From: a virus
DNA length: 32,028 nt
Reading direction: 5' to 3' (one strand)
UHGV virus genome: UHGV-0196822
Both the position numbers and the translations under genes were made by a program. Positions 1-31,788 of the stretch are shown here, piece by piece; within the stretch, counting starts at the first letter, position 1; every line of letters starts with the position of its first letter. The notes below the pieces were generated by a model. The model was not told the DNA's origin. It saw only the letters and a program-made list of their open reading frames with translations, and did not search any database.

Positions 1-99
1 ATACGCTTTCCCAACGCCGAGTTTTTCTCCGAGCTGAGCCATTGTAATCTTGTTATTGTGCATCTTGCCGACCACATCGCCAGTCCATTGTGCAGGCAT
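1..99 (-). CDS. Cro-like HTH regulator, 5' part (gene continues across the circular junction into 31927..32028)
   Basis: ATG at 99 reads MPAQWTGDVVGKMHNNKITMAQLGEKLGVGKAY and continues in frame as VCAILNGRRSPKGAEQRFMAALDELIKEKEEDK* from the window end (66 aa). XRE-type HTH pattern, divergent from CI, first gene of the lytic operon. Confidence 0.88.
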   Translation of the reverse strand, partial: MPAQWTGDVVGKMHNNKITMAQLGEKLGVGKAY

Positions 100-231: not shown

Positions 232-260
232 ATTATAGTGTAAACAAACGCAACAGTCAA
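232..260 (-). promoter_or_regulatory. Lytic (Cro) sigma-A promoter
   Basis: Minus strand reads TTGACT-gttgcgtttgtttacac(17 nt)-TATAAT, a near-perfect consensus. The spacer is the operator motif. Confidence 0.85.
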
Positions 261-318
261 GACGCAGTTGTTCCTTTTGTTTACTTTCTGCTATTTGCAC
301 AAAAAGGGTGTGTTGCGT

Positions 319-636
319 TTGTTCTATATCAACTATGTTGCTCTTTGTAATAAAATTGGGAAGTCCCCGTCTGCTGTCGCCGAAGAAATGGGGTTTATGC
401 GTTCCGTGGTTACGCGGTGGAGCAAAGGGACAATTCCAAGGCAGGCAACATTGCAAAAGGTTGCTGACTACTTCGGCGTAAGCGTGGATTACCTTTTGGG
501 GAAAGAAAAACAGCCCACCGAAGGTGAGCTGTCCGGTATTCGGAAAGACCTTATGGATTTCGCAGATACTTTGACAGATGAGAAAATTGAGAAATATCTT
601 CGTCTAATGAAAACTTTAGAATCCGAAGATATTTAA
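319..636 (+). CDS. CI-like phage repressor (XRE HTH, short C-terminal helix, no S24 peptidase domain)
   Basis: SPSAVAEEMGFMRSVVTRWSKG..PRQATLQKVADYFGVSVDYLLG is a classic XRE HTH. Probable TTG start at 319 behind aaagggtg (ORF track opens at 268). Confidence 0.88.
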   Translation: MFYINYVALCNKIGKSPSAVAEEMGFMRSVVTRWSKGTIPRQATLQKVADYFGVSVDYLLGKEKQPTEGELSGIRKDLMDFADTLTDEKIEKYLRLMKTLESEDI

Positions 637-694
637 CAAGCTGCTCGTCAGACATCCGTTCCACCGCCTTTTTGAATTCCTCCTTTTTCTCCAT
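551..694 (-). CDS. Small 47-aa protein antisense to CI 3' end; putative CI C-terminal mimic / anti-repressor
   Basis: AGGAGGA RBS 6 nt before ATG(694). MEKKEEFKKAVERMSDEQLVKYLRILKFSLDEDISQFSHLSKYLRNP* resembles the CI tail ADTLTDEKIEKYLRLMKTLESEDI. Function is inferred. Confidence 0.7.
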   Translation of the reverse strand: MEKKEEFKKAVERMSDEQLVKYLRILKFSLDEDISQFSHLSKYLRNP

Positions 695-882
695 TGGTGT
701 TCCTCCTCTTTTGTCGATTATTGTAAAATAAAAATCCTTCCAAATTCAGCATGTATTTGGTACAATTCAATTGTAACAAATTGTATTGCCAATATGTACT
801 GACAAATGTTGCGGTTTCGGCGCAAAAACTGTCATGTTTTTCGGACAAAAGTGTCCGGTAACAAAAAACAGGAGATGAGTTT

Positions 883-1293
883 GTGAATTCAGACGAAGAA
901 AGAAATTGGGATAACTTTTTATTGGAGGTAGCCACAAAACGGCAGGAGCATGGAATGACCCACAAGGATTTGGCCGACAATGCCGGGACAGTTGAGAGGA
1001 CGATATCCCGGCTACTTTCGGAGCCGACCAAGAATCCGAGCCTTTTTCTCGTTGCTTCCATCTGCCAAGCGCTGCACATATCTCTCGACAAGCATTTCGT
1101 GAAGGAAGTCTATAACAAAACAGACAGCCAGAACAGCGAAGAAATGATAGAGGTTCTGAAAGAGCAGGTGCGCCAACGCCGGAAACTGTCCAAAACACTC
1201 TTCGCAGTTATTTTTGTCCTGCTGGCGATGATGATTTTATACCTCGTCCTAATCGATGCAAATAACCTTAACTACGGTTTAATTCGGGATTAA
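883..1293 (+). CDS. XRE-family HTH protein with C-terminal transmembrane helix
   Basis: GMTHKDLADNAGTVERTISRLLS..NPSLFLVASICQALHISLD HTH; hydrophobic LFAVIFVLLAMMILYLVLI; aggag RBS before GTG. Confidence 0.8.
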   Translation: MNSDEERNWDNFLLEVATKRQEHGMTHKDLADNAGTVERTISRLLSEPTKNPSLFLVASICQALHISLDKHFVKEVYNKTDSQNSEEMIEVLKEQVRQRRKLSKTLFAVIFVLLAMMILYLVLIDANNLNYGLIRD

Positions 1294-1306
1294 GAACAGA
1301 TGTTCT
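1293..1306. promoter_or_regulatory. LexA (Cheo/SOS)-type box
   Basis: AGAAC-AGAT-GTTCT matches the Firmicutes GAAC-N4-GTTC consensus; adjacent to promoter-like elements at 1312-1340. Confidence 0.65.
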
Positions 1307-1311
1307 TTCCA

Positions 1312-1340
1312 AATATAATCGTACACCGTAAAGTGTACAA
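1312..1340 (-). promoter_or_regulatory. Putative leftward promoter overlapping the SOS box region
   Basis: Minus strand TTGTAC-N17-TATATT. Also a + strand TATAAT at 1314-1319 and palindrome gtacac-N6-gtgtac at 1321-1338. Confidence 0.45.
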
Positions 1341-1364: not shown

Positions 1365-1913
1365 ATGGAGGAAATGGAGAAAACAACACCAGAGATCAAG
1401 CCAAAGAAGAAAAAAACGATGGTAACAGCAATAATCCTAATTGTTATCATAATTGCAATCATCGGAGCGCTTGCCGGTGGAGAAAAGGATAAAGACAAAC
1501 AGGACAATCAGCAAAATCAGCAGCAACAGCAAGAGGGGCAAAACACGGAAGTGGATATGTCCGTAGTCGCTTCGGCCATAAAAACTGTGCTTGATAAAAA
1601 TGCAGAGGGCACAGGGATTGAGTACTCTTTAGAATACGATGACACCGGTCTTGTTATAGCAGCAAAAGCGTCAGGAGTAGCTGCAGAAGTGGCGCAAGCA
1701 AAAGCGGACGGATACGACGATACATACGAGCCATGGGTAACAATGCGTGAAAGCATGGTTAAGCTGTGCAATTCGATATCCGATGCCGTAGAGACGCTTG
1801 GCGCAAAGGATAAATATGTAACAGTCACAGTGGTCAACGATGCCAATGAGGACAACACCCTCTTGATGATTATGAACGGCGTGGTTGTATACGATGTAAT
1901 GGCAGAAAAATAA
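1365..1913 (+). CDS. Membrane-anchored acidic exported protein (superinfection-exclusion-like by position)
   Basis: Basic KPKKKK, then TM VTAIILIVIIIAIIGALA, Q-rich linker and acidic domain; ggagga RBS; lies between repressor and integrase. Confidence 0.7.
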   Translation: MEEMEKTTPEIKPKKKKTMVTAIILIVIIIAIIGALAGGEKDKDKQDNQQNQQQQQEGQNTEVDMSVVASAIKTVLDKNAEGTGIEYSLEYDDTGLVIAAKASGVAAEVAQAKADGYDDTYEPWVTMRESMVKLCNSISDAVETLGAKDKYVTVTVVNDANEDNTLLMIMNGVVVYDVMAEK

Positions 1914-3051: not shown

Positions 3052-3268
3052 GTGAGTTATTTTGTGAGTTACAAGGAAAAAGAAAAAGCCCAGTTTTCGC
3101 TTGAAACTGGGCTTTTCTTGTGGCGGAGATGGAGGGATTTGAACCCACACGAAAAATTATGTTATTGCCGCAAAGTGTAGGAATTAAGCGGTTTTTCCGA
3201 CTTTAATTCCGCTAAAAAAAGCATGAAAAACTCACTTTCGGAACAAAAGTGAGTTACAAAGTGAGTTA
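3052..3268. other. attP site with arm-type repeats and tRNA-Ser 3' core
   Basis: GTGAGTTA at 3052, 3064, 3249 and 3261 (two tandem pairs, 12-bp period) and inverted AACTCAC at 3229. Core 3121-3146 reverse-complements to GGGTTCAAATCCCTCCATCTCCGCCA (T-arm, acceptor stem, G73, CCA). Confidence 0.88.
3078..3118. terminator. Bidirectional intrinsic terminator (int 3' end / reconstituted tRNA 3' end)
   Basis: aaaagcccagttt-loop-aaactgggctttt with T-tails on both strands. Confidence 0.8.
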
Positions 3269-20480: not shown

Positions 20481-21272
20481 TTACCATACGGTCACTAGCT
20501 GTTTCTTGCCGTCCTTTGTTCCGCGCAGCATCAATGTCTGCGGTTGGTCTGCATCGCTCTCGCTGCTGGGCAGCAGCATCTTCCGGGCTGCGTAGCCTCC
20601 GTACTGCTGCCATGCAGTACAGCTAACCACTACCAGCTGCTTGGTACGGATAACATTGTTGTTACTGTCCACCACGATCTTTTTGGGCTTACTGATGGTG
20701 CCTTTGTGGGTGTGGCCAACAATCAGAGCGTCAATGCCCTCTATGGTGTAGCCGAAGCGCTCATTGCGGTTTACCGTTGCACCGGTGTAAATGCCGCCGC
20801 CGGAGCCATGGGTAACAGCCATCGTATAGCTGGTGATAGGGATATCTCTTGTTACCCTGCGCCCAATCTCCAGTTTGAGGAATGCTATATCCTCGGCGTA
20901 GTAGTCCTCCATGTCCAGCTTGCACATGATATCGCCCATAATGTCTTGGTCGGTGTCCTTGGCCGTCCTCGCTTCGTGGTTACCGGATACCGCGCAGAGT
21001 ATCTTATCCTTGATGGGCGTTAGCATTTCCACCATCATCTTTTTCTGCTCCCGCGGGCGGATATAATCCTCAAAGGGGCTTCCCACCGCGTTCCGGGTAT
21101 TGTTGTTGATGAGATCGCCGCCAAGGATGAGATAAGCGTCCTCCCGCTCTACCCGGCGGCAGAATGCTTGCCAGCCATCTTTATCATGTAGGATGCTGCC
21201 CAAATGCACATCAGATACCGGATATACCTTGATGGTGTCGCTCTGCGGGATTTTACGGACTATTAAATCCAG
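20481..21272 (-). CDS. Calcineurin-like metallophosphoesterase (probable CTG start)
   Basis: SDVHLG, GDL, GNHE, THG and GHTH motifs. AAGGAGG lies 8 nt before in-frame CTG at 21272; the ORF-track extension to 21470 overlaps structured RNA. Confidence 0.85.
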   Translation of the reverse strand: MDLIVRKIPQSDTIKVYPVSDVHLGSILHDKDGWQAFCRRVEREDAYLILGGDLINNNTRNAVGSPFEDYIRPREQKKMMVEMLTPIKDKILCAVSGNHEARTAKDTDQDIMGDIMCKLDMEDYYAEDIAFLKLEIGRRVTRDIPITSYTMAVTHGSGGGIYTGATVNRNERFGYTIEGIDALIVGHTHKGTISKPKKIVVDSNNNVIRTKQLVVVSCTAWQQYGGYAARKMLLPSSESDADQPQTLMLRGTKDGKKQLVTVW

Positions 21273-21294
21273 AGGTATCCCCTCCTTTATGGCA

Positions 21295-21462
21295 TAAAGA
21301 AAGAGAGCGCCTTTCGGTACTCTCTGACTGCTTTTGGTAAGGCAGACTATTGCGAACTTGCGGCCTGCCAGCGCGGCACCTTTTTTACGAAGGTCATGTA
21401 TCTTCGGCCGGTGGGATAACGGGGCATCGGCGACCCCGTAAAAAGGAGGTAAAACATGAAGG
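21295..21462 (-). ncRNA. Putative structured non-coding RNA 3' of the tRNA
   Basis: Consecutive hairpins acgggg..ccccgt, cgaag..cttcg, ggcaggc..gtctgcc, and agagagt..ccGAAAgg..gctctct plus T-rich tail. Confidence 0.4.
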
Positions 21463-21537
21463 TGGAGCACCCGATAGGGCTTGAACCTATAACCCGCTGC
21501 TTACAAGGCAGCCGCTCTACCATTGAGCTACGGGAGC
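21463..21537 (-). tRNA. tRNA-Thr(UGU)
   Basis: GCTCCCG TA GCTCAATGGTAGAGC G GCTGC CT-TGT-AA GCAGC GGGTT ATAGG TTCAAGC CCTAT CGGGTGC T CCA; full cloverleaf with encoded CCA and one U3:U70 mismatch. Confidence 0.92.
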
Positions 21538-29307: not shown

Positions 29308-29513
29308 TTCCTATCCTCCTCAAAGTACCTGTCTGCGTCTAAATCCCCTGCATCGAACCACTTAATACAGTTCTCACAGCCAATGACCATGCCATCCTTA
29401 ATGTAAATGGTCTCGTTAATCTCACAGCCACATTCCGGGCAGATATGCGGTTTATCGTCGTAGTTGTCTACCCAACTCGGGATTGGCCTATCTGGGATAT
29501 CGTAAGGGCTCAT
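29304..29513 (-). CDS. Small zinc-ribbon protein
   Basis: CPECG..IGCENC. Confidence 0.7.
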   Translation of the reverse strand: MSPYDIPDRPIPSWVDNYDDKPHICPECGCEINETIYIKDGMVIGCENCIKWFDAGDLDADRYFEEDRK

Positions 29514-30448
29514 GCTTCCACGACCTCCCCATTTTCCAGTTTGTAAAATACCCCGGGTTTTATGACCTCACCATCTACCTTTACCGCTCGCACCTCTTTA
29601 ATGGGGCAAGTGTCACCGTTCCAGTTGCCCCTCTCGGTTAGGACAAGCCAGCATCCAATGGCGCCGGATGCTTTACTATCGACCCCGGTGACGATTGCAA
29701 TAGACTCCTTTCCATCAACGGTTGCTGCGCTATAGTTGCCGGTGTTGGTGGCTGCGCTACGGTCGCCGGTGTTGGTGGCTGCGCTACGGTCGCCGGTGTT
29801 GGTGGCTGCGCTACAGTCGCCGGTGTTGGTGGCTGCGCTACAGTCGCCGGTGTTGGTTGCTGCGCTACAGTAGCCGGTGTTGGTGGCTGCGCTACAGTCG
29901 CCGGTGTTGGTTGCTGCGCTACAGTAGCCGGTGTTGGTTGCTGCGCTACGGTCGCCGGTGTCGGTTGCTGCGCTACAGTAGCCGGTGTTGGTTGCTGCGC
30001 TACAGTCGCCGGTGTCGGTTGCTGCGCTACAGTAGCCGGTGTTGGTTGCTGCGCTACAGTCGCCGGTGTTGGTTGCTGCGCTACAGTAGCCGGTGTTGGT
30101 TGCTGCGCTATAGTTGCCGGTCTGATTTTTGCTGCTCTCGGCTTTTTCTTTTATGTACTCAACCGCAGCTTTTACGATACCTGCAATCCCGATCTCCGCC
30201 TTGAGTTTAATCTTCGTTCCAACCCGCTTGGTGTCGTCACTTCCTGTTTCATCCGTCACTCCGTCAAGGTCGGCCACGAAAAACCGGCTGTCGGCCGGGG
30301 CGTAATGGGCGAACACATCAAGCGGGTACTCGCATCCATGGAAACCTTTGTCGCACAGTTTCGCTTCCTCCTCCACATATTCTTTGCCAAGATCGAATTG
30401 GAAGCCTCGGCACTTCATATCCTTATCGGTTCCCTTGTAGACGATCAC
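29510..30448 (-). CDS. Phage protein with YKG..CRGFQ..GFH.CE.PLDVF N-domain and 9-aa tandem repeat region
   Basis: Conserved-looking N- and C-termini (VDG..IKP..FYKL.NG) around 15 TGxxSAAT(N/D) repeats. Confidence 0.85.
   Translation of the reverse strand: MIVYKGTDKDMKCRGFQFDLGKEYVEEEAKLCDKGFHGCEYPLDVFAHYAPADSRFFVADLDGVTDETGSDDTKRVGTKIKLKAEIGIAGIVKAAVEYIKEKAESSKNQTGNYSAATNTGYCSAATNTGDCSAATNTGYCSAATDTGDCSAATNTGYCSAATDTGDRSAATNTGYCSAATNTGDCSAATNTGYCSAATNTGDCSAATNTGDCSAATNTGDRSAATNTGDRSAATNTGNYSAATVDGKESIAIVTGVDSKASGAIGCWLVLTERGNWNGDTCPIKEVRAVKVDGEVIKPGVFYKLENGEVVEA
29720..30121. repeat. 27-bp coding tandem repeat, 15 units
   Basis: Unit like ggttgctgcgctacagtcgccggtgtt; 14 x 27 + 24 = 402 bp. 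Confidence 0.95.
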
Positions 30449-31431: not shown

Positions 31432-31788
31432 ATGAGCGAAAAACTTGATGTTTCGTATTCTTTGACCGAAGAAGAAAAGAGAATATTTCGCAAATTCAAG
31501 CGAAGCAATAGCGCCAAATTGACAAAATCTGAATTTCAGACTATGCTCCGGTCAAAGCTGGTAGATGGCGGTTTCGGCGGCGAATACTACTGGTTTAGCG
31601 AAGGCTCCTTTGATGAGGGAATTGCTTGCCTATCGGAAAACGGTTTGCGTGTTAAAGCCGCCATGCGTGCCGAGAAGAAGTTAAGCGTCCGGTATTGGAT
31701 TACAACAGGAGTTGCAATCGCTGGTTTCCTGCTTGCCGTCTTGTCTCTCCTCATGCAACATGGGATAATATCACTACTGCCGCTATGA
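31432..31788 (+). CDS. Membrane-anchored hypothetical protein, inverted within the early operon
   Basis: gaggtg RBS, extended -10 TGgTAGACT upstream, C-terminal TM YWITTGVAIAGFLLAVLSLLM. Confidence 0.75.
   Translation: MSEKLDVSYSLTEEEKRIFRKFKRSNSAKLTKSEFQTMLRSKLVDGGFGGEYYWFSEGSFDEGIACLSENGLRVKAAMRAEKKLSVRYWITTGVAIAGFLLAVLSLLMQHGIISLLPL

Follow-up and report, generated by a model that had tools for sequence, protein, structure and literature searches.

A putative tail-decoy antirepressor gene antisense to the cI-like repressor gene of a gut phage

How might a prophage be woken when its repressor has neither a self-cleavage domain nor a protease partner, as is the case for the short repressors of many gut prophages? 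In the 32,028-nt virus genome UHGV-0196822 (the whole of this stretch is hereafter called the window), a 47-codon open reading frame (ORF) lies antisense to the end of a cI-like repressor gene, and we consider it probable, at about three chances in four, that its product is an antirepressor, that is, a decoy of the repressor tail that would block the pairing of CI. This reading, which draws on sequence comparison, predicted folds and analogy, is supported indirectly by the conservation of the gene, the purifying selection acting on it, the matching predicted fold, the co-inheritance of peptide and tail, and the precedent of AimX and AimC, which have the same layout. A tail decoy would be a specific and testable answer to the question of how such prophages wake.

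Genes for a terminase, portal, capsid, tail, amidase and integrase are present in the window, which appears from its sequence to be the genome of a complete circular temperate phage; circularity is deduced from the cro-like ORF at 99..1 (minus strand, 5′ part), because it runs over the join into the window end as a 66-aa protein. The order of the lysogeny region is cro-like gene (−), cI (+), small ORF (−), second XRE gene (+), variable gene at 1365 (+) and integrase. The cro role is assigned from the position of the gene, which is divergent from cI, and a consensus match marks a promoter-like site on the cro side (260..232, minus strand). The cI-like XRE repressor (313..636, plus strand; 107 aa) probably starts at a TTG codon, with 319 as a possible alternative; it has a helix-turn-helix (HTH) domain at residues 13-61 and, after a linker, a predicted two-helix tail (residues 75-86 and 89-104). 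Most records that contain related repressors are titled Clostridia, Eubacteriales or Oscillospiraceae. The initial annotation had held that this CI lacks an S24 domain and that no ImmA-type metalloprotease accompanies it, and our searches agree: HTH_3 is the only Pfam domain in CI, the HExxH motif is absent from every stop-to-stop ORF of at least 80 aa in the six frames of the genome, and the ImmA, S24 and TPR families are absent among 52 ORFs, hand-picked from the ORF lists, that were scanned against Pfam.

Several other features of the genome were recorded. The sequence at 3120-3149 (minus strand), just past the integrase gene, resembles by eye the 3′ end of a tRNA gene and is a candidate attP core. 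A tRNA-Thr(tgt) gene (21463-21537) abuts a calcineurin-like phosphoesterase gene (20484-21470), a DUF7666 protein (29510-30448, minus strand) contains a long tandem 10-residue repeat, SAATNTGDCS-like, at 29722-30204, and a 118-aa gene with a hydrophobic C-terminus (31432-31788) lies on the opposite strand inside the early lytic region, where relatives have other genes (L254).

The small gene (694..551, minus strand) starts with ATG and encodes 47 aa. On the opposite strand, the final 86 nt of cI lie within it, and gene callers miss it because of this overlap. Its ribosome-binding site, AGGAGGA (707..701, minus strand), lies 6 nt upstream of the ATG and is conserved in the alleles described below; a predicted intrinsic terminator (534..508, minus strand) is found 17 nt past its stop codon, inside the linker codons of cI (KEKQPTEGELS). 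The ORF, its strong ribosome site and its antisense position over 86 nt of the cI end had been pointed out previously, and all were confirmed from the sequence. Among the metatranscriptome contigs of four runs from one study, one contig of one run covers 441-724; it carries no strand or level, and DNA was possibly present.

How closely does the peptide resemble the tail of CI? In an ungapped alignment of peptide K4-I34 with CI R77-I107, 10 of 31 residues are identical and the BLOSUM62 score is 55, a value reached by none of 5000 shuffles, which bears out the gapless match first reported. It had also been argued that this likeness is not merely a by-product of shared DNA, and that argument stands in part: a signal in a fixed register exists outside the overlap, but most of the identity comes from one DNA mirror. 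The aligned codons are mirror images around position 613, and eight of the 10 identities fall in peptide residues 20-34. Because one 11-bp inverted repeat (592-602 / 624-634) supplies KYLR and EDI to both proteins, seven of the 10 identities amount to a single event, and since this locus has the strongest DNA mirror among the 11 clusters of the survey below, its identity overstates the mimicry. The inverted repeat speaks for an alternative in which the ORF and its likeness are by-products of a DNA palindrome at the cI end, formed as a hairpin or an inverted duplication, with no protein function. Such an origin is also favored by slightly higher mirror scores in loci with such ORFs (p=0.007), and by the finding that, among 86 control antisense frames, 12-17 stay open across 47 codons.

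The part of the gene beyond cI speaks against a palindrome as the whole explanation. The MSDEQL segment, as had been noted, is encoded beyond the cI coding sequence, at 655..638. Outside the overlap, two of 16 residues are identical; peptide residues 1-19 alone are not significantly similar to the tail in a free register (449 of 5000 shuffles) and are significantly so in the register fixed by the overlap (138 of 50000). DNA identity outside the overlap is 6, 11 and 4 of 16 at the three codon positions, which reads as a protein-level pattern and not as a recent duplication; a recent inverted duplication as sole origin was rejected on the third-position identity of 4 of 16. By these sequence measures, the likeness outside the 11-bp mirror is weaker yet real. 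A correlation of hydrophobic patterns was discarded as circular, since its anchors had been picked on hydrophobic positions. A word-indexed search with the peptide gave seven matches, all near-identical. The ESM Atlas gave no usable match to the peptide, a PDB sequence search with the peptide alignment gave nothing relevant (best E 0.1), NCBIfam and PHROGs contained no family for it, and none of the peptide, CI and 13 aligned peptides matched the Pfam SinI family at E up to 1, in a search where the HMMER filters lose most weak matches.

Is the small ORF maintained by selection? Viral, metagenome and genome loci yielded 102 distinct segments that reach from cI as far as the second XRE gene; these are close kin and not independent samples. 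The conservation in relatives that the initial annotation had proposed as a check was found throughout: the antisense ORF is intact in 102 of 102 segments (101 parsed with the ribosome site, L039 read by hand). In codons 2-19, beyond cI, 23 haplotypes contain 26 synonymous and 13 replacement variants (pN/pS 0.10, p=9e-12), allele C alone having 0 synonymous and 2 replacement variants. Judged by these sequence variants, the small ORF is a real conserved gene under purifying selection on its amino acids. This selection outside the overlap, the retention of ribosome site and frame in three unrelated alleles, the codon-position pattern described above and the existence of non-overlapping examples all argue against a palindrome without protein function, which we regard as very improbable.

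The three unrelated tail alleles each have their own peptide. The co-variation of the antisense ORF with the CI tail, another suggested check, was seen without exception: 57 segments are A/A, 40 B/B and 4 C/C, with zero mismatched pairs. When nine DNA-binding head types were told apart by key motifs, seven of the nine were found with two or three tails. The block common to all head/tail recombinants is the terminator block (94 of 102 segments fit the strict pattern, 7 are one base off and 1 is cut), and at the other border the sequences of the alleles converge again where the start codon and ribosome site lie. The gene and the tail occupy the same DNA between terminator and ribosome site and are therefore swapped together, whichever DNA-binding head is present; the sequences thus indicate a cassette of tail and peptide that recombines with heads at the terminator. 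The co-inheritance of tail and peptide follows from the overlap and alone is no proof of binding. In the terminator, 79 of 80 cells pair, one pair alone changing on both sides, which is not above shuffles (155 of 500). A scan for the terminator pattern was set aside as too unspecific (118 loci).

The predicted structures agree with the alignment. In a single-chain AlphaFold model, the peptide forms helices at residues 2-12 and 16-36 (mean pLDDT 82), and the CI tail forms helices at 75-86 and 89-104 with low confidence (block pLDDT 49-65). The helices of the two coincide at an offset of 73, which is the register of the alignment, so that peptide and tail are predicted to share a helix-turn-helix hook fold. 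Compared by VIA, the peptide model matched 6fxa, the dimerisation domain of TP901-1 CI (Z 4.2, rmsd 1.6, 35 aligned), and residues 81-117 of 3ivp, the C-terminus of a C. difficile XRE protein (Z 4.3, rmsd 1.5, 37 aligned), both tied with unrelated hairpins. Foldseek gave nothing at E up to 0.001 for the peptide or CI model; its matches to CI, SinR (1b0n, E 0.014) and phi106 AimC (9sf2, E 0.035), both reflect the HTH.

Does the arrangement occur behind other Clostridia-type repressors? An HTH profile search of the collected loci gave 559 matches, from which 184 distinct tails (20-75 aa, with at least 260 nt downstream) were grouped into 105 clusters at 50% identity. A cluster was called positive when an antisense ORF with a ribosome site resembled non-cognate tails at z of at least 2.4, a cut-off chosen after the list was seen; the next row, L671 (z 2.2), has an ImmA-like neighbour. 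A tail-like antisense ORF was found behind 11 of the 105 tail clusters, a proportion that is no estimate of prevalence: repressors of this kind were already part of the query alignment, and this phage family accounts for three of the 11. None of 16 S24-type repressors had a tail-like ORF at the cut-off. Nine of 10 overlaps in positive clusters use the same phase as the window.

First, the peptides of the 11 clusters score higher on their own tail than on those of others (37.5 vs 27.6, p=1.5e-4); by part, the excess is significant in the overlapped part (p=0.0025) and not outside it (p=0.11), and two clusters (L029, L617) score under the non-cognate mean. Second, the antisense frames of 86 control loci never reach a score of 34, whereas nine of the 11 positive clusters do; 8-13 of the 86 control frames are in the top 5% for their own tail, above the 4 expected. 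Third, L303, which has no overlap, scores 36 and L592, with a 20-nt overlap, scores 48, each against its own tail, so that shared DNA is unnecessary for tail likeness; L586 also overlaps by 20 nt or less. Fourth, an adjacent HExxH (ImmA-like) protease was found in none of the 11 positive clusters and in 29 of the 94 others (p=0.03); the small gene and the protease apparently exclude each other. A linker terminator was present in 11 of 11 positive clusters and in 27 of the 94 others, and so is not specific to the tail/peptide system.

Antisense terminators in linker codons (KEKP-like) are common among Clostridia-type XRE repressors without the small gene (e.g., L256, L260, L280 and L255), and they occur in ImmA-type and S24-type repressors too. 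At L255:2289-2444 and L299:2309-2449, an HTH and an S24-like domain are followed by an extra hook-like tail, and a convergent small ORF in each bears a weak likeness to the tail, an arrangement in which double control is possible; L264 and L276 have the extra hook-like tail and no convergent small ORF. Near-identical modules were also found in records titled Helicobacter pylori and Absicoccus sp. (L254 and L272), titles that probably reflect contamination or mis-binning.

How would the decoy act? We propose that CI dimerises via its tail and would repress the cro-side promoter. The peptide, which probably folds like the two-helix tail of CI, would pair with it in place of a second CI, giving a 1:1 heterodimer; peptide-bound CI would then leave its operators, and the freed cro-side promoter would lead to lytic growth. 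DNA damage may switch the small gene on via the host LexA, here most likely from a leftward promoter at 1339-1312, and the terminator at 534-508 would halt the transcript short of the HTH codons. A transcript running from the ribosome site to this terminator would be complementary to cI 508-636, and it might instead work chiefly as an antisense RNA, or through convergent transcription, directed at the 3′-terminal 130 nt of the cI mRNA, the peptide being secondary. We think this improbable. Selection acts on amino acids, the overlap is absent in L303 and short in L586 and L592, and the predicted terminator would end transcription before the HTH region. Moreover, according to the AimX/AimC preprint, the antisense RNA of aimX is inconsequential, in that start-codon mutants lost function and recoding of the overlap did not have this effect (bioRxiv 10.1101/2025.11.23.689978).

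The control of the small gene was considered in terms of two kinds of site. A LexA-type box, GAAC-N4-GTTC, occurs at 1294..1305, 600 nt upstream of the small gene, as the sole such match in the window. The arms of the box are the same in all 102 segments and its spacer differs in 11; one such box in a window of this size is at chance level (50 of 100 shuffles). The leftward promoter-like site TGTACA-16-TATATT (1339..1312, minus strand), called from its consensus match alone, points toward the small gene, with the box over the expected start, and no hairpin stronger than -8.5 kcal/mol ahead of a T-run was found between the box and the small gene. A rightward promoter-like site (1290-1319, plus strand), for the variable gene at 1365, overlaps the same box, which could instead serve that gene. 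A LexA-type box lies no more than 80 nt from the start of the small gene in L651, L593 and L660, that is, in 1 of 11 strict clusters, or 3 of 16 when five borderline clusters picked by eye are added, vs 0 of 85 controls. From these sequence matches, SOS control of the small gene seems likely for the class as a whole and plausible, with the odds about even, at the window locus. Tandem imperfect TTCGACA-like repeats (712..729) just upstream of the ribosome site resemble the heptamers of Spo0A boxes; they are degenerate here, and their assignment is speculative. Such heptamers occur within 80 nt of the start in 3 of 11 clusters vs 3 of 86 controls and are mostly imperfect in the family of the window, so we treat Spo0A-type control as a lead only. 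GAAC-N4-GTTC is the consensus used for the LexA of B. subtilis and clostridia (PMC4234289).

The second XRE protein (883..1293, plus strand; 136 aa), divergent from the small gene, has a hydrophobic C-terminal segment and is almost invariant in the family; second XRE genes adjoin the small gene also in L271, L262, L584 and L299, and, in the G001 family, 1 of 151 genomes had the divergent XRE gene. The palindromes at 761-775 and 842-857 could be sites of this protein. The slot behind the LexA-type box (1365-1913, plus strand) has an occupant that varies among relatives, the product here being weakly similar, in PHROGs, to proteins of superinfection exclusion (E 7e-5). Alternatively, the peptide might bind CI or the membrane-type XRE protein and stabilise lysogeny, serving as a co-repressor or tuner, or might act solely in the infection decision and not in SOS induction. 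Hooks can build hetero-oligomers as well as break them, 10 of the 11 strict clusters have no LexA box beside the start, and a second XRE gene recurs next to the small gene. However, the peptide has no DNA-binding head, so that a heterodimer would presumably lose half its operator contacts; the genome yielded neither an S24 domain nor an HExxH protease; and both tested precedents, AimX and SinI, inactivate the repressor. A stabilising or infection-only role is thus unlikely, although we give it more weight than either a palindrome or an antisense RNA, and inactivation of CI by the tail decoy remains our preferred reading.

A broader speculation, which we hold to be doubtful, is that in gut Clostridia prophages self-cleavage and ImmA are joined by a third widespread switch for induction. 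It would be a cassette bounded by a terminator, with a pairing tail and its decoy on opposite strands of one piece of DNA and so inseparable while the head shuffles freely. In the family of the window, one host LexA box would fire an 800-nt antisense transcript that reads across the membrane-type XRE gene, encodes the decoy and ends within cI, and Spo0A-type boxes would restrict induction to non-sporulating cells. The three natural tail/decoy alleles provide a ready specificity matrix, and they predict that one prophage could induce another in the same cell when the two have the same tail allele, even if their immunity differs.

How does the locus compare with known systems? ImmR/ImmA-type and S24 (lambda CI-type) switches cut the repressor. 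The locus is like them in the position of its short XRE repressor gene, with a cro-like gene on one side and the integrase on the other, and unlike them in that neither an HExxH protease nor an S24 domain was found in the genome. In the SinI/SinR system, sinI is not antisense to sinR, and the two genes lie in tandem. In the TF-smORF modules of Vibrio linear plasmid-like phages, a transcription factor gene is divergent from a small antirepressor gene, and to our knowledge the small proteins are not copies of the repressor tail; in the accessible text of the AimX/AimC preprint they are about 80 aa, vs 47 aa here (bioRxiv 10.1101/2025.11.23.689978).

The initial annotation had taken SinI/SinR of Bacillus subtilis as its model. 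As far as the available reports go, the likeness to that system holds for a small protein that resembles the C-terminal two-helix hook of the repressor, for adjacent genes and for a repressor of about 110 aa, and SinI takes the place of the partner hook in SinR (PMC3163267; PDB 1b0n). SinI/SinR is a chromosomal biofilm switch under Spo0A, and the peptide here has no Pfam SinI match. The tail sequence likeness behind the model stands; the closest system, however, is AimX/AimC, so that the design is not new. In the accessible text of the preprint (bioRxiv 10.1101/2025.11.23.689978), AimX binds AimC in Bacillus arbitrium phages and blocks its oligomerisation and DNA binding, and the authors themselves liken the design to SinI/SinR. 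The locus shares with this extended arbitrium (AimX/AimC/AimL) a short HTH repressor without an autocleavage domain (107 aa and HTH_3 only here), a divergent small cro-like gene (66 aa here) and a small helical ORF that runs toward, and in some cases over, the 3′ end of the repressor gene (29-80 aa there; 47 aa with an 86-nt overlap and predicted to be helical here). The phi106 arbitrium family has a LexA site upstream of the small ORF, and the window has a conserved box 600 nt upstream. The locus differs in that no aimR/aimP-like family was found: directly upstream of the small ORF there is no aimR/aimP but an opposite-strand XRE gene with a hydrophobic C-terminus in the aimRP place, followed by a 182-aa gene (hydrophobic N-terminal segment) and the integrase. 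Peptide/tail sequence likeness, a terminator of its own inside cI and cassette exchange are found here and are not reported for AimX in the text available. Our related loci are mostly Clostridia-titled, 'Clostrid' occurs 0 times in the accessible preprint text, and a literature search, with subscription papers mostly outside its coverage, gave no report of a tail-decoy design in Clostridia phages. The locus adds three things: an occurrence in gut phages without arbitrium, a cassette with a terminator as its border that recombines with different heads, and a small gene that apparently does not occur together with ImmA. The AimX design would thereby be extended past the arbitrium phages of Bacillus. 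With no aimRP and no Pfam SinI match it belongs to neither group, but the locus, by analogy, probably works like AimX/AimC and SinI/SinR.
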